From positions 36,638 through 100,637 of the forward strand of contig CAZVZC010000001.1 in assembly GCA_964631415.1 (NCBI GenBank): a DNA stretch of 64,000 bases, written 5' to 3'. Both the position numbers and the translations under genes were made by a program. The stretch's first letter is position 1. Every line of letters starts with the position of its first letter. Source of the stretch: an uncultured archaeon. Its GTDB lineage: Archaea; Asgardarchaeota; Thorarchaeia; Thorarchaeales; Thorarchaeaceae. The notes under the pieces are model-generated. The model was not told where the DNA came from. It made no database searches and worked only from the letters and a program-made list of their open reading frames with translations. Below are positions 2,631-36,650 of this stretch, piece after piece.

Positions 2631-2975
2631 ATGGAATCAGGTGAGATTCAGGACTTTGAGAGCGAAACAGAGCGAGTTCGATTGAGATTACGCGTCATGC
2701 GTCTTGAGAATGGGCTCCTCATTCTGATCTCAGACTCAGAGAGGTTTCGCTTGGGTCTCTCGGCTGTGGCAATTCCGGCAGGGTCCGGTCGACAGGAACC
2801 TAGTTCCACAGGGTTCTTGTCCGTCGGAGAAGACGTAGTACAGGTGCGCATCCTAGCTGAGACTGTTGCAAAACGTACAGGCCAAATGTGCATGGTGGTA
2901 GCCGCAGTCAAGGAGCTAAACCGTACACTCATGATGGACATCACTAGGACTCTGAGGGAGCATGTCCCGAAGTGA
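2631..2975 (+). CDS. Proteasome assembly chaperone 4 (PAC4/PSMG4)-like protein
   Basis: 114 aa; VMRLENGLLILIS, AVAIP...PSST and LAETVAKRTG resemble PSMG4 motifs recalled from memory (VMRLTDSLFLWVG, LAVAM...PVST, LAQRLARKTN). Confidence 0.65.
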   Translation: MESGEIQDFESETERVRLRLRVMRLENGLLILISDSERFRLGLSAVAIPAGSGRQEPSSTGFLSVGEDVVQVRILAETVAKRTGQMCMVVAAVKELNRTLMMDITRTLREHVPK

Positions 2976-3174
2976 CATAGTCAATCACATCTTGAACCCA
3001 CGTCCCGAGTCCTTCGACACGGCGTAGTGAGGCGAGGTAGTCGGCCCAATCGATTTCAAGCGCTTTCTTCCACTTGTCAAATGCAGAATATAGTCCGTCA
3101 AGGGCTTTTCGGTGATATCTACATAGCTCACTGCCATTTGCTGATTCACGACCGCAGAGCGGGCAGTCTGTCAG
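2944..3174 (-). CDS. Small Zn-finger protein (CxxC-x10-CxxH), 76 aa, apparent CTG start; absent from the ORF track
   Basis: Reads (M)TDCPLCGRESANGSELCRYHRKALDGLYSAFDKWKKALEIDWADYLASLRRVEGLGTWVQDVIDYVTSGHAPSES*; GGAGGTGA Shine-Dalgarno at 3188-3181, 6 nt before CTG; CTG overlaps the topA stop (CTGA). Confidence 0.8.
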   Translation of the reverse strand: MTDCPLCGRESANGSELCRYHRKALDGLYSAFDKWKKALEIDWADYLASLRRVEGLGTWVQDVIDYVTSGHAPSES

Positions 3175-5306
3175 ACGTCCTCACCTCCATTGGGCTGGTT
3201 CTTGGTTCTTCTCCTCGTCCTCCTCTTCTCAAGCAACTCAATGTCTTGTTGGCGGCCTGGGCATTTTGTCCAGTTCAGACAGGTTTCCCATCCTCTCTTT
3301 CCTGACAGGATCTTAATCATATGGTGACCACAATGAGGACAGGTCCTACCCAGCGGTACGAGCTTGCCTTTCTGCGGTAAAGGAAACGCGATATCACAGG
3401 TTCCCTTCTGATGGTTTGAACACCCTACAAACCTCTTTCCTGTCTTGGGTGAGTAGATTACAACTAGGACTCCGTCGGCACAACTGGGACACGGTCCTAT
3501 CTCCTGCTCTTCCCTCCAATACCTTCGCAGCCCCTTCGCCAGGGCTTGGCCTATGCTTTGCTCCTGCAATCTGAAGTTCTCTAGTAGTTTCACAAGTTCG
3601 TTCTTTGCATCCAAGAGGACTGCCCTTCTTTGTCCAATGCCTTGTTGGATTTCCTCCATCTTCAGCTCGAGTCTGCGTGTCATGTCAGCGGACAACATAT
3701 CGGGCACGTGTATTTGGAGAGCCTCGAAGGCCGCATAGCCCAATGCAGACAGTTCGAAGTGACTGCCGAGCGTATACCCCCTAGAGTTGATGGAGTCGAT
3801 GATTCCAGCACGGGTGGCTTTTGTACCTAAGTTCTCCTTCTCCAGCAGTTTCAGTAGACTGGATGGATTGAAACGAGGCGGCGGCGGTGTGTACTTCTCA
3901 TCAGCACGCACTGATGTTAGGTCGATCATGTTTCCCTCGCTAAGTGGAGGCATTGCTTTCTCATTCATAGTGGCATAGGGACTGTAGAGGCTGGTCCATC
4001 CTGCCTCAAGGACTGTCAAACCTCTCAGATAGAAGAGGTGTTCACCACATCTGATGTCGGCTATCACAACTTGCTTCACTGCAGGCTCCCCGAACAAAGC
4101 CAAGAACCTGCGCACCACCAAGTCATACACCCTTTCCTCGTTCGCTGCCAGCTTCTTTGTTGGCCGATTTCCCGTTGGGAGTATCGCAGGATGGGCTTTG
4201 TCTTCTTTCTCGCCCTGCATGGGTACTAAGCTCTTGTGCTGAAGAAGGCGCCTAACGAGGGGGGCGTATTTGCTCATCTTTCCGATGCCTTCGAGTGTTT
4301 GTCTAACGTCCAGACTCGGCGGCACTTTCTGGCTGTCAGTTCTAGGATATGTGATGAGTGCATCAAGATACAGTCCCTGTGCAATCTGCAGGGTTCGGCT
4401 TGGTCTGAGTTCGAAATGCCTGTATGCTTCTGTTTGGAGGTCACTAAGATTGAAGGGGGGCGGAGGCCTCTGTGAGGAGATTCTGCTACTGATTGAGCTC
4501 ACGCGAGCAGTTCTACCAAGGAGATCCTTCACCAAGGCATCTGCCTGTGCCTTTGTTTCAATCCTTCTATCACTGTACTCCAAGCTCACTTGCTGGCCAT
4601 CTACAACTCCGGTAGTAGACAAGGTCCAGAACGGTATCGGTACAAAGAGATTGATTTGCTGATCACGTTCCGCCACATATGCCAGAGCGGGACCTTGGAC
4701 CCTTCCTGTTGAAACTATTCTGAACAGTCCTGTCGTGTTCTTCATGGCGAGCGTCAGGGCGCGTGTGAGATTGATTCCATACAGCCAGTCCACTTCATGC
4801 CTAACACAGCCTGACTCGACCATAGGAAAGTCGAGAGTTGGCATCAGGGTCCCATAGGCTTTCTGCAATTCTGGTTTAGTCAAAGACGAAAAAACCATCC
4901 TCCGTGCTCTTGAGGGGTCGATGCCACAGACGTGTTTGACAATCAAATAGCCAATCAGACTTCCCTCGATATCATAGTCCGTGGCCACGACAAACCTGTC
5001 CGCATTCACAGAGAGACGCCTAATCAGTTCAATGACTGGTTTGGTACCTCCCGCGCTCTTTTCAACCTCGTATTTGGGTGCCCATTCCGTATCGAGTCGT
5101 GGGTATGTCCATCCTTTCTCTGTCTGCCGAAGCTCATACAGGTGTCCAAGAGCATAGACAACGGTGAGAGAATCGCCTTGGCATTTGCACTCGTAGTATG
5201 AGGCTCTTCCACTCTTGACTTCATGGAAACCATCCTGATCATCGAGAGCCTCGGCTATTCTCTTAGCCGCACTTGGTTTTTCCGAGATCACAAGGACCCG
5301 GGACAG
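3171..5306 (-). CDS. topA: DNA topoisomerase IA (archaeal TopA/Topo III) with C-terminal Zn ribbons
   Basis: Toprim SEKP and ATDYDIEG, GRVQGP, active-site ITYPRTDS, C-terminal CxxC pairs; start extended from GTG 5291 to CTG 5306 to complete the first Toprim strand. Confidence 0.95.
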   Translation of the reverse strand: MSRVLVISEKPSAAKRIAEALDDQDGFHEVKSGRASYYECKCQGDSLTVVYALGHLYELRQTEKGWTYPRLDTEWAPKYEVEKSAGGTKPVIELIRRLSVNADRFVVATDYDIEGSLIGYLIVKHVCGIDPSRARRMVFSSLTKPELQKAYGTLMPTLDFPMVESGCVRHEVDWLYGINLTRALTLAMKNTTGLFRIVSTGRVQGPALAYVAERDQQINLFVPIPFWTLSTTGVVDGQQVSLEYSDRRIETKAQADALVKDLLGRTARVSSISSRISSQRPPPPFNLSDLQTEAYRHFELRPSRTLQIAQGLYLDALITYPRTDSQKVPPSLDVRQTLEGIGKMSKYAPLVRRLLQHKSLVPMQGEKEDKAHPAILPTGNRPTKKLAANEERVYDLVVRRFLALFGEPAVKQVVIADIRCGEHLFYLRGLTVLEAGWTSLYSPYATMNEKAMPPLSEGNMIDLTSVRADEKYTPPPPRFNPSSLLKLLEKENLGTKATRAGIIDSINSRGYTLGSHFELSALGYAAFEALQIHVPDMLSADMTRRLELKMEEIQQGIGQRRAVLLDAKNELVKLLENFRLQEQSIGQALAKGLRRYWREEQEIGPCPSCADGVLVVIYSPKTGKRFVGCSNHQKGTCDIAFPLPQKGKLVPLGRTCPHCGHHMIKILSGKRGWETCLNWTKCPGRQQDIELLEKRRTRRRTKNQPNGGEDV

Positions 5307-5454
5307 TTCTGTTCGCCTCTGGTTCTCTCATTGCCATCGGTGTTCGTATGTTTTTAACAATGACTCCATGCCAAGACTACGCCATAGTACAGGCCTCCAT
5401 CTCACGATATTTTTAAAAGCGGACCTCCCGACCTCGCTCGTTGAGGTTTGCCTT

Positions 5455-5868
5455 TTGCCTGTATGGTGGCCGCGATTCATAATTAAGCCCCAAGTACGAC
5501 TCACGAGGCCCCGGTTTGGAATGCCCGCGCGTCCTCCTGACATAGTCCTCTTTGGAGGACTGTTGCTGGCCATCCTGTTTATTATGGGTGGCAACATATA
5601 CACGTTAGTCAAGACTCCGCCTGCGATTGCTGGTGACTCATCAGGAAACCCAATCCTTATTGCACCAGGCATTGATATTCAGCTTGGACTAGAAGGAATT
5701 GTGGCCTCGGTTGTCATTTTCATTGGAACCATTGGTATTGGTCTCGTCTATCTGTCCTCAAAGTATGTCTTCCAGCCTGGCTATGCAACACGCCTGATGG
5801 TTCTCGGTGCAATACTTGCAGGTGGCGCATTCTTAGTCATAAGCTACCTCTATGGTCTTAAGACATAG
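5455..5868 (+). CDS. OST3/OST6-family, DC2 (OSTC)-like oligosaccharyltransferase accessory subunit, 3 TM
   Basis: FIMGGNIYTLVKTPP...QLGLEGIVAS...GTIGIG matches the DC2 pattern FLITGGIIYDVIVEPP...QYIMEGLASS...GGLGF; TTG start after a GAGGT SD. Confidence 0.75.
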   Translation: MPVWWPRFIIKPQVRLTRPRFGMPARPPDIVLFGGLLLAILFIMGGNIYTLVKTPPAIAGDSSGNPILIAPGIDIQLGLEGIVASVVIFIGTIGIGLVYLSSKYVFQPGYATRLMVLGAILAGGAFLVISYLYGLKT

Positions 5869-6675: not shown

Positions 6676-7890
6676 TCACCCGACTTGGAGATTGCGGTCG
6701 GCCATTAGCGACTGTATTGCATTGCCGATGTCTATGAGCCCGAAGTACTGCATCGTAGAGAGCCTCTTTGTCATTCTTCCAAGCTGAAGAGGTGTCCCCA
6801 TTATTAGGACGTCTGTGCTATCAATGCGATGATCTATAACATCGTGATGATAGGCCGCATCTCCTCCGACTGCAAGCATCTCCTGCTTGATTATGAGTGC
6901 TGCAGGGGTCGAAACTTCTCTGATTCGGAAGTTGAGCATCACTGCTTTCCCGGCCAACGGTTGGATGATCTCAGCACCTGCACCCAATTGCTCGATCACG
7001 AGTGCGGCCTCTCTCTCGTTGGACAGACTCACCAGCTCAACATTGTCCTTTGTCACCACAGGGGGGTGTTTCAGGGCCTGTCCAACTATCGCTGCCATAC
7101 GAGCCTCCTGCACATCGTGTGCACGGATTATGTCTGCACCGTTTACGACTGCCACCGATGTGGCAGCAATCGTGCCAGTGATACGCATGGACGGATCGGG
7201 CTGGTCAAGCAGCTGACCTATGAACGCCTTTCTCGATATTCCCACAAGGAGTGGACGTCCCAACAATGTGAATCGTCTGAGGTTTCTGACAATCGACAGG
7301 TCCACAGCAGCAGGCTTTCCGAAGCCAATACCTGGGTCTACGACAATCTGCTCTTGCCCAACACCCACATCGATTGCAGTCTTCATGCTCGTTCTGAGCG
7401 CATCCATTGTCGCATTCAGATCTGAGCACGGTTGTCCACAGTCCGCCATCAATATGATTGGCACATCTGCGTCTGCAATCAGCTTTCCCATTTTGCTGTC
7501 CATACGAAGTCCCGAAACATCATTGACGAGGGAAGCGCCAAGATTCAGTGCCGTACGTGCAACAGCAGCAGATGTGGTATCGATGGATACCGGAAGATGT
7601 GTGTTTTCGACGACAGTTGCGAATGCTTCCGAAACTCTTGTCAGCTCCTGATTTGCATCGACCTTGGTCGTACCATAGATGCTCTTTGGCGCCGTGGAAG
7701 CGCCACCCACGTCGATGATGTCTGCGCCTTCTCGTTCCATCTTTTGGACTAACTTTATCACATCATCCCTTGTGGTCGCCACGGATCCGCCATAGAACGA
7801 CTCAGGAGAGAGATTAATCACACCCATGACTCTGGTTGGATTGTCGCGTCCGACCCTGAGTCCACGGATGTCGGTTTCGTAAAGGCCCAT
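6676..7890 (-). CDS. folP: Dihydropteroate synthase with C-terminal dihydropteroate-reductase-like domain
   Basis: MGVINLSPESFY, DVGGAST, SIDT, NDVSG, DPGIGFGK, GISRKAF, RAHDV; extra ~120 aa containing ALIIKQEMLAVGGDAA and QYFGL. Confidence 0.92.
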   Translation of the reverse strand: MGLYETDIRGLRVGRDNPTRVMGVINLSPESFYGGSVATTRDDVIKLVQKMEREGADIIDVGGASTAPKSIYGTTKVDANQELTRVSEAFATVVENTHLPVSIDTTSAAVARTALNLGASLVNDVSGLRMDSKMGKLIADADVPIILMADCGQPCSDLNATMDALRTSMKTAIDVGVGQEQIVVDPGIGFGKPAAVDLSIVRNLRRFTLLGRPLLVGISRKAFIGQLLDQPDPSMRITGTIAATSVAVVNGADIIRAHDVQEARMAAIVGQALKHPPVVTKDNVELVSLSNEREAALVIEQLGAGAEIIQPLAGKAVMLNFRIREVSTPAALIIKQEMLAVGGDAAYHHDVIDHRIDSTDVLIMGTPLQLGRMTKRLSTMQYFGLIDIGNAIQSLMADRNLQVG

Positions 7891-7975: not shown

Positions 7976-9124
7976 GTGATGAGCGAAAGTCTAGGTAGAA
8001 CACACCTCTACGAATGGCACAAGTTGCACGGTGATGTTATCCCCTTCGCAGGTTGGGAGATGCCCGTTCGATACACGGACATCCGTGAGGAGCATATGGC
8101 TGTGAGAAGGGCGGTTGGGATATTCGATACTACACACATGTTTCGCTTTCTCATAAGCGGTCCTCAAGCAGCTGAATTCCTGCAGACACTCACTACAAAC
8201 AGCGTTTCCAAACTGGAAATCAATGAAGGGCATTACTCAACGTGTCTCAATGATAAGGCCGGGATTCATGACGATCTCATGATTTACAGAATTGGTGAGC
8301 AGAAGTACATCTGGATAACTAATGCCTCCAATGGTCCCAAAATCAAGGCTCACCTTACAACACATGCTAAGCGGTTCAAGGTTAGCGTTGAGGATAAGTC
8401 AAAGGACATTGTCATGATAGCAGTACAGGGACCAAAGGCCTTGGCTTTGCTGTCAAAGATGGCTGGCGAAGGCCTCAGGAAGTTCGCCCGGTTCAGCTGC
8501 AATCCTGTGAAGTTTGCAGGGCGCGACTGCTACCTATGTCGTACGGGTTACACCGGAGAAGAAGGCGGAGAAATCCTACTACTAGATACGCCGTTCAACG
8601 AGGCTGGAAAGAAGAAGGCCATCTCCTTCTGGGACGAGATACTCAAACAGGGGAAGGACCTAGATGTAAAGCCTTGTGGGCTCGGTGCTAGAGACTCGAC
8701 AAGACTTGAGGCTGGATTCGTACTATACGGGCACGAGCTAAATGAGGAAACTACTCCACTTGAGGCTCGGATTTCGTATGCAGTCAAGTTCAAGGTCGAA
8801 CCGCATTACATAGGCTATGATGCACTGCTGAAACAGAAGCAGGAAGGTGTCACTAGGGCACGCATTGGACTGTTGATGATAGACAAAGGTGTCCCCCGCG
8901 AGCAATACCCCGTCATGCTTGGCAACCGGCAGATAGGGGCCGTGACAAGTGGCGGTATGTCGCCCGTGCTCGACTGTGGCATCGCATTGGCCTACGTCAA
9001 ACCCGATGCCGTGAAGGAAGGTGACACCGTTGAAGTGGACATAAAGGGACGACTACGAAAGGCCCGAGTGACTGGCTGGCCGTTCTACAATCCTGACGAG
9101 TACGGCGAGAACAGGACCCGTTGA
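7976..9124 (+). CDS. gcvT: Glycine cleavage system aminomethyltransferase T
   Basis: FAGWEMPVRY, RTGYTGEEGGE, GLGARDSTRLEAG. Confidence 0.96.
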   Translation: MMSESLGRTHLYEWHKLHGDVIPFAGWEMPVRYTDIREEHMAVRRAVGIFDTTHMFRFLISGPQAAEFLQTLTTNSVSKLEINEGHYSTCLNDKAGIHDDLMIYRIGEQKYIWITNASNGPKIKAHLTTHAKRFKVSVEDKSKDIVMIAVQGPKALALLSKMAGEGLRKFARFSCNPVKFAGRDCYLCRTGYTGEEGGEILLLDTPFNEAGKKKAISFWDEILKQGKDLDVKPCGLGARDSTRLEAGFVLYGHELNEETTPLEARISYAVKFKVEPHYIGYDALLKQKQEGVTRARIGLLMIDKGVPREQYPVMLGNRQIGAVTSGGMSPVLDCGIALAYVKPDAVKEGDTVEVDIKGRLRKARVTGWPFYNPDEYGENRTR

Positions 9125-35747: not shown

Positions 35748-35985
35748 CTGTCGCTAGCGGTTCGGCAGACAATTGCCGCTGCAATCGTGATATTAACGTT
35801 ACGAAAGTGGGCGCCTGGCTGACCGGTCTGGATGCTGCTTCAGTCTGCCCTGTGCCGTGTCTTGCGTGCGGTGCAGGCCATACGCAATGAGGATTGCATA
35901 ATCTCTGGCGCGAACTCCGCCTGTCTTGTTCCGACTTTATATGAATGAGTCAACACTATGAGAAAAGCCGACTCTGGTAACTCGA

Positions 35986-36447
35986 ATGATTCTCCTATTC
36001 ACCTCCGAACATTGCACCATGTGTGACATGGTCAAAGACATGCTGGAAGAAGAGAAGGGTACTCTGTGCGATGGCACCACTATATACGAGGTGAACGTGG
36101 AGAAGCACCATCACATTGCAGAGGTCTATGGTGTTGTGATGGTGCCCACGCTTGTAGCGGGCTCTAGTGTGCTTTCAGGTATACCGTGTCCGAACGAACT
36201 GAGGTCGTTTCTTCTCCAAGCTGCCATTGGCAGTCATTTCTACGATGAAGACGAAGAGGTGGGATCTGTCTTGATTCCAGTGATTCATCTGCAACAGGTG
36301 AAGCCCTCTTCGAAGGCTGGCAACGCTCGCAAGATACCGAAGCCAAGACGCACGCCGGCCGCAGACCAACACGGAAGTCTAGCAGAAACTACAATTCTCG
36401 AAGAGTCCGAAGAGCAGGAGCCGCCAGAGCCTACGCTCCGCCACTGA
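35986..36447 (+). CDS. Thioredoxin-like protein with low-complexity C-terminal tail
   Basis: FTSEHCTMC (CxxC), cis-Pro motif VPTLV, acidic and Pro-rich tail. Confidence 0.8.
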   Translation: MILLFTSEHCTMCDMVKDMLEEEKGTLCDGTTIYEVNVEKHHHIAEVYGVVMVPTLVAGSSVLSGIPCPNELRSFLLQAAIGSHFYDEDEEVGSVLIPVIHLQQVKPSSKAGNARKIPKPRRTPAADQHGSLAETTILEESEEQEPPEPTLRH

Positions 36448-36618: not shown

Positions 36619-36650
36619 ATGTCTTCTGGGAAACGACGTGGTGCTCTGTA

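Follow-up and report, generated by a model that had tools for sequence, protein, structure and literature searches.

At which codon does translation of topA, the gene for a type IA DNA topoisomerase, begin in Thorarchaeota? The question is raised by a 64,000-nt window (the whole stretch of DNA analyzed here; positions 36,638–100,637 of contig CAZVZC010000001.1, assembly GCA_964631415.1) from an uncultured archaeon of the Thorarchaeaceae, the genome of which is an 85%-complete metagenome-assembled genome (MAG). Open reading frame (ORF) finders call topA from a GTG codon (5289–5291, minus strand), which results in a 706-aa protein beginning MISEKP; a preliminary description of the sequence placed the start five codons upstream, at a CTG (5304–5306, minus strand). 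From sequence comparison and a predicted structure, CTG is most likely the start codon, and we consider it very probable that the CUG at 5306–5304 initiates topA on a leadered, Shine-Dalgarno (SD)-dependent mRNA, where it would be read by the initiator tRNA. We prefer the CTG because its alignment column holds only NTG codons, the SD register is conserved, protein conservation sets in at the codon directly after it, and residues 3–8 of the CTG-started protein appear to be needed for the fold.

Anatomy of the topA start site

Read from the CTG, topA spans 3171–5306 on the minus strand, comprising 711 codons and the stop codon TGA (3173–3171). The sequence elements on which the preliminary description relied are all in place on this strand: the frame is closed 8 codons before the CTG by a TGA (5330–5328), followed by GAG AAC CAG AGG CGA ACA GAA, the CTG (5306–5304), TCC CGG GTC CTT, the GTG (5291–5289), and ATC TCG GAA AAA CCA (ISEKP), and the stretch from the TGA to the CTG is free of ATG, GTG and TTG. 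An SD-like GAGGCGA (5313–5319, minus strand) is set off from the CTG by a 6-nt spacer. The CTG-started product would read M-S-R-V-L-V-I-S-E-K-P, in which the called GTG is codon 6 and the GAA at 5280–5282 (minus strand) encodes residue 9, the Glu in the (S/A/T)EKP motif of Toprim. Peptides expected from the CUG start are VLVISEKPSAAK, SRVLVISEKPSAAK and SRVLVISEK, and from the GTG start (M)ISEKPSAAK. A 114-codon ORF upstream in the same frame (5328–5672) was considered as part of a fusion or readthrough product and discarded, as it matches no Pfam family and is antisense to an OST3-like gene, and the TGA severs it from topA.

The foremost alternative is that translation starts at the called GTG, with the CTG and the four codons that follow it forming an untranslated leader. 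GTG is a standard archaeal start, it is the one chosen by ORF finders and by database calls (P0001 and P0002 both begin MISEKP), and it still precedes the catalytic Glu. We nonetheless regard a start at this GTG as unlikely, on evidence from the orthologs, the ribosome-binding site, and the protein fold that is set out in turn below.

Conservation of the start codon among orthologs

topA orthologs were taken from 40 related genomes and from public genome contigs, their N-termini were aligned, and the codon aligned to the CTG of the window was read off. In 39 distinct Thorarchaeota orthologs, this codon is CTG in 18, ATG in 10, TTG in 7 and GTG in 4, and no other Leu or Val codon occurs in the column. 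The occurrence of NTG in 39 of 39 cases exceeds chance, because only ~43% of the Leu codons and ~32% of the Val codons in this genome are NTG. Among ~58 topA orthologs of other archaea (Odin-, Jord-, Heimdall-, Bathyarchaeia, and others), none has CTG at the start position; these have ATG, TTG or GTG at, or adjoining, the equivalent position.

Conservation at the protein level begins at codon +1. Of the 18 genes with CTG, 15 encode Ser at codon +1 (via TCC, TCT, TCG and TCA) and 16 encode Arg or Lys at codon +2 (via CGG, CGA, AGA, AGG, AAG and AAA), and the residues after the start codon, S-R/K-V/I-L/M, are kept through synonymous codons, which would be unexpected if codons +1 to +4 were leader. 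Positions −1 to −5 of the same genes show no amino acid conservation and include stop codons; in 12 of the 18, an in-frame stop lies 1–14 codons upstream with no canonical start between, and in one ortholog (L013) a TAG immediately precedes the CTG.

A consistent start at the Val encoded at 5291, which the preliminary description had named as telling against a CTG start, is not what the orthologs show. In four of them (L003, L004, L005 and L024), the CTG is not followed by another start-type canonical codon until 20–27 codons in, past the catalytic Glu, such that no equivalent of the called GTG is available before this residue. GTG itself occurs at +5 in just 5 of the 18 CTG-bearing orthologs. 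ATG-started and CTG-bearing orthologs have canonical codons at +4 or +5 with equal frequency, and such codons would thus encode hydrophobic strand residues rather than mark a relocated start.

Ribosome-binding site

In this genome, GGAGG, GAGGT, AGGTG and GGTGA accumulate 9–16 nt before first ATGs, with GAGGT and GAGGC peaking at −14 to −11 before ATG starts. The GAGG of topA begins at −13 from the CTG, inside this register, and at −28 from the GTG, outside it; no other SD serves the GTG in register. An SD-like site is kept at equal place and spacing in all 39 orthologs, and the motif conserved in orthologs is of the GAGG(C/T)GA type. Using an assumed anti-SD sequence, the duplex energy of GAGGCGA was −8.0 kcal/mol, and mean energies across the 39 orthologs were −7.8 (CTG), −8.7 (TTG), −7.4 (GTG) and −6.5 kcal/mol (ATG), with no significant difference in SD strength between CTG and the other starts (Mann-Whitney P 0.34).

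The topA product and its first Toprim strand

Pfam profiles and the closest solved structure both identify the topA product as a topoisomerase III-like type IA DNA topoisomerase. Topoisom_bac (PF01131) matches over the full-length profile (E 1.1e-106), Toprim (PF01751) matches residues 4–141 of the CTG-started protein (E 5.3e-12), and Zn_ribbon_Top1 matches weakly; the closest solved relative is Sulfolobus solfataricus topoisomerase III (PDB 6K8N; E 6.5e-101, residues 4–593). E9, the acidic Glu, and D110, D112 and E114, of the metal-binding motif DxD(xE), are invariant in 30 topA orthologs. The core aligns to 6K8N and to Escherichia coli topoisomerase III, and the translation contains the catalytic tyrosine motif LITYPRTDSQ, the Tyr of which we take to be the active-site residue from established knowledge of the family.

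E. coli topoisomerase III starts M-R-L-F-I-A-E, and its M1–E7 align to residues 3–9 of the CTG-started protein, with L3 at residue 5 and Glu7 at residue 9. Modeling of the first 250 residues with AlphaFold2 from a 30-sequence alignment (mean predicted local distance difference test score of 85, and 93 for the first ten residues), places strand β1 at residues 3–8. The called GTG lies inside this predicted strand, and a start there would keep just three of its six residues before the Glu; half of the first Toprim strand would therefore be removed. Together with the alignment and the SD register, the structural evidence lends strong support to the earlier proposal of a CUG rather than a GUG start.

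Dual initiation and artefact as less likely alternatives

Initiation may also be imagined at both codons, whereby CUG would yield the full-length enzyme and GUG a 5-residue-shorter, probably impaired form, with the ratio of the two set by start-codon stringency and hence by the level of the initiation factor aIF1. The two NUG codons lie only 15 nt apart, and the aIF1 gene of the lineage itself starts at CTG or GTG, suggesting regulated stringency. However, the second site has no SD and the +5 GTG is not conserved (as noted above), and we regard dual initiation as highly improbable.

The remaining alternative, namely a misassembled start codon or else a gene that is start-less and unexpressed, we give next to no credence: while the genome is an incomplete MAG and an ortholog of a neighboring gene (GcvT in genome G003) does carry a 1-nt indel, the CTG recurs in 18 independently assembled species, which excludes the sequencing error that the preliminary description had also argued against, the ORFs are intact, and there is just one topoisomerase III-like match per genome. 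Pairs of CTG-bearing orthologs show ratios of nonsynonymous to synonymous substitution rates (dN/dS) of 0.07–0.14 at dS 0.27–1.9, indicating that these are functional genes under purifying selection. On the protein tree, CTG forms whole clades (e.g., L013/L039/L003/L033, L034/L031/L004/L005, and L049/L045/L048), and at least 8 changes from CTG to a canonical codon are needed; CTG has therefore long been inherited, and is not a transient lesion or an assembly error.

Extent of the proposed CUG initiation

The preliminary description had raised the possibility of lineage-wide CUG initiation. This holds up as use in selected genes (e.g., topA, the Zn-finger gene downstream of it, and aIF1) and fails as pervasive use. 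SD-based tests were run on ~1,900 long ORFs of this genome. The first SD-led starts are ATG in 177 cases, GTG in 67 and TTG in 66, all three strongly enriched, and the use of non-AUG starts is high. For CTG, a scan for SD-led starts gave no significant excess in tests that are blind to topA itself (the SD of which has just 4 contiguous matches) and to genes of <100 codons: CTG was observed behind an SD 88 times genome-wide against ~83 expected (3,469 codons, 0.024 baseline), two further tests gave 20 against 12.8 expected and 12 against 8 expected (P 0.11), neither significant, and a competition test (≥6 of 8 SD matches) gave no CTG signal in this genome. Pervasive CTG initiation is ruled out by these genome-wide tests.

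The neighborhood of topA gives a similar picture. Synteny around the window is well kept in the family, and the 5′ ends of ~40 neighboring genes were aligned in up to 21 genomes. Of ~490 start sites outside topA, ~480 are canonical (ATG 348, TTG 78 and GTG 53) and one is CTG; the only convincing non-canonical cases are a thioredoxin-like gene with CTG in genome G022 and FolP with ATC in genomes G001 and G003. With 46% CTG, topA is an outlier by about two orders of magnitude compared to its neighbors. ARAGORN detected 25 tRNAs with a single tRNA-Met, a set too incomplete to judge the initiator tRNA or an initiator with a CAG anticodon.

Several points weigh against a CUG start at topA. In the absence of a significant genome-wide CTG excess, CUG initiation is not a general habit of this genome. 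All genomes compared are MAGs. A canonical GTG lies just 5 codons downstream of the CTG, and some initiation there is possible. The anti-SD sequence is an assumed one, the 3′ end of the 16S rRNA not having been found in the assembly, and the topA SD has a C where this anti-SD would prefer a U. Finally, the case is built on sequence, conservation, SD register, and predicted structure. With these points taken into account, our confidence in the CUG start remains high.

Other near-cognate starts in the lineage

Directly downstream of topA lies a small Zn-finger gene (2944–3174, minus strand; 76 codons), which was the second of the two consecutive CTG-started genes claimed in the preliminary description, and this claim proved correct. 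Its CTG (3174–3172) follows a perfect SD, GGAGGTGA (3188–3181), after 6 nt and overlaps the topA stop codon TGA (3173–3171). CTG is found here only in this genome and in genome G002, with ATG or GTG in relatives.

The gene for aIF1/SUI1, the start-codon proofreading factor, was found elsewhere in this genome (L151:548–871, plus strand, corresponding to contig C16:30048–30371). Its start-equivalent codon in 16 family genomes is CTG in 9 and GTG in 6, with ATG in none; AGGAG precedes it, and a stop is often found 1–2 codons upstream. To judge from these sequences, the CTG and GTG starts of aIF1 suggest autoregulation through start-codon stringency.

Several further genes have a non-canonical codon where relatives have a canonical one. 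atpD, encoding A-ATPase subunit D (L152:491–1114, minus strand, corresponding to contig C5:26791–27414), has ACG 6 nt after GGAGGTGA, where relatives have ATG or TTG, and the same is seen in G002; the frame opens just 2 codons upstream of the ACG. The conserved N-terminus of Cbf5 lacks a canonical start in this genome and in G002, and an ACG (L153:1445–1447, minus strand, on contig C33) with GGAGG from −15 aligns to the ATG, GTG or TTG of relatives; an alternative CTG occurs six codons upstream of this ACG. FolP in the sister species G001 (L116) and G003 (L115) has ATC at the start position, 6 nt behind GAGGCGA or AGGTGA, with an in-frame TGA inside the SD in G001; the FolP gene of the window (6676–7890, minus strand) has ATG. 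The thioredoxin-like gene in G022 (L138), an ortholog of window positions 35962–36444 (plus strand), has CTG as its start-equivalent codon, nine codons after a TAA, and the other orthologs have ATG or TTG.

Of the non-canonical codons that follow a strong SD at the 5′ end of an ORF, ACG showed the greatest enrichment (13 against 5.5 expected, P 0.004 uncorrected). Six ACG cases have an SD of ≥6 nt, and several of the candidates resemble real N-termini. The GcvT gene of G003 (L115; ortholog of window positions 7976–9124) was also considered as a start-less gene and rejected, since 1 extra nucleotide occurs shortly after a TTG start and the start codon itself is not affected; this 1-nt indel is either an assembly error or a real frameshift.

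Proposed mechanism

We propose that the SD GAGGCGA in the 5′ leader, with its 6-nt spacer, places the 30S subunit at the CUG, where the initiator Met-tRNA would pair through a first-position mismatch, as at GUG and UUG; decoding as Met is assumed. Initiation at this codon would yield a protein with a complete first Toprim strand. CUG would represent an inherited and tolerated start state, interconverting with AUG, GUG and UUG across Thorarchaeota and present in about half of the species, and it may lower or tune topoisomerase output, along the lines of the deliberate dampening suggested in the preliminary description. The codon likely persists because a weak start is enough, or even of benefit, for an enzyme of low abundance and for the Zn-finger partner split from it. 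An equally viable alternative is near-neutral drift, whereby the strong SD would make the four NUG codons nearly equivalent.

A broader view, which we advance as possible but doubtful, is that initiation in Thorarchaeota is relaxed towards near-cognate codons in a eukaryote-like manner, such that CUG and ACG, in addition to GUG and UUG, function behind an SD. Here, aIF1, translated only from CUG or GUG, would set the stringency in an autoregulatory loop (like infC and eukaryotic eIF1), and topoisomerase III, its split Zn-finger subunit, atpD, Cbf5, FolP and the thioredoxin-like gene would make up a stringency-tuned set.

Upstream region and neighboring genes

The neighbors of topA in the window include a divergent OST3/OST6-like gene and a PAC4-like gene. 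In an upstream alignment of 9 orthologs, a promoter-like element, GCTTTTAAAAATATCGTG...TGTAC (5387–5420, minus strand), resembling a TATA box with a transcription factor B recognition element (BRE), is near-invariant. The block reads GCTTTTAA(A/G)A(A/C)TATCGTG, followed by TGTAC ~25 nt later and then by a spacer of variable length to the SD. This looks like a TATA/BRE box with a transcription start near the TGTAC and a leader of ~25 to 85 nt, as judged from archaeal promoter geometry. Between the TATA-like block and the SD, the leader holds ~0 to 60 nt of inserted sequence, depending on the species. The near-palindromic TATA-like block, GCTTTTAAAAATAT plus TGTAC, is situated between topA and the divergent OST3-like gene and is almost invariant across genera; the 5387–5420 block is probably a bidirectional promoter.

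Some database entries extend topA to an upstream in-frame GTG (e.g., at −14 in L003). This codon falls within the TATA-proximal ATCGTG, upstream of the likely transcription start, and on this inference only we rejected it as a start.

The OST3/OST6-like gene of the window (5368–5868, plus strand) starts with TTG, ATG or GTG, depending on the species, at a conserved L/M-(P/K)-x-W-W-P N-terminus, which lies well downstream of the first ATG of its ORF.

Comparison with known systems

At the protein level, the nearest known system is Sulfolobus solfataricus topoisomerase III (6K8N/6K8O), which has the Toprim domain and topoisomerase core in common with the Thorarchaeota enzyme and differs in that Thorarchaeota encode the C-terminal Zn-finger part in a small gene of its own; this likeness bears on the protein and not on its initiation. 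Gene finders appear to mis-call the topA start, and expression or modeling of the Asgard enzyme from database entries may thus use the wrong protein. Among the 120 closest database protein clusters, the Glu stands at the expected position 9 in 46 and at positions 3–6, shortened into β1, in 48; ~22 clusters of the same enzyme carry spurious extensions running through ...(R/K)-L-S-(R/K)..., and 4 begin after the EKP motif and lack the catalytic Glu.

With regard to initiation, the closest parallel is found in SD-led archaeal genes initiated at GUG or UUG (PMC4705826), which similarly have a leader with a normally spaced SD and an NUG codon mismatched at its first position, and the orthologs of which switch between AUG, GUG and UUG. 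The codon differs, as CUG is almost never fixed elsewhere: across 36 prokaryote groups, switches to CUG were found in 2 of 61,358 AUG, 1 of 5,080 GUG and 1 of 2,468 UUG starts (PMC5622118), yet CTG is the commonest codon at this position here (18 of 39 species). A review of start codons names AUG, GUG and UUG for archaea and does not list CUG (PMC4705826), and a ribosome-profiling study in Haloferax volcanii noted near-cognate codons at ~30% of the putative sites of alternative initiation and excluded these from analysis (PMC7261190). In a literature search of incomplete coverage, which is no proof of novelty, no report of a CUG or CTG start came up for archaea, whether Asgard or other. A codon treated as essentially unused for initiation in archaea (PMC4705826, PMC5622118) would hence be the commonest topA start across Thorarchaeota, an Asgard class. 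It occurs in a conserved gene of an essential type, and is seen again in aIF1, which polices the choice of start codon.

Bacteria use CUG, AUU and AUC as rare starts (NCBI table 11), and the AUU start of infC makes IF3 autoregulatory; aIF1 is the functional counterpart of IF3 in start-codon proofreading. topA resembles infC-type genes in that one particular gene retains a near-cognate start preceded by a good SD, and the aIF1 of the lineage also has a weak start (CTG/GTG). In contrast, the product of topA is a topoisomerase and not an initiation factor, so autoregulation of the infC type does not extend to it, and Archaea use the eukaryote-type factors aIF1, aIF1A and aIF2. Self-discrimination of the infC type may instead apply to the aIF1 of the lineage.

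Among the near-cognate starts of eukaryotes, CUG and ACG take the lead, and no known group is more closely related to eukaryotes than the Asgard archaea. The CUG starts of Thorarchaeota would offer a testable entry into the evolution of start-codon stringency. Near-cognate initiation in eukaryotes follows the order CUG > GUG > ACG, with c-Myc and PTEN-L as examples (PMC4705826). The likeness lies in the codons, as CUG, and ACG in this genome, are the non-canonical codons seen, and in the eIF1- and eIF2-type factors of Asgard archaea. The topA site differs in that it would be selected by SD pairing, and not by scanning and Kozak context; moreover, the CUG in the eukaryotic examples adds an alternative N-terminal extension, whereas the CUG of topA would be the sole start yielding the full-length enzyme.

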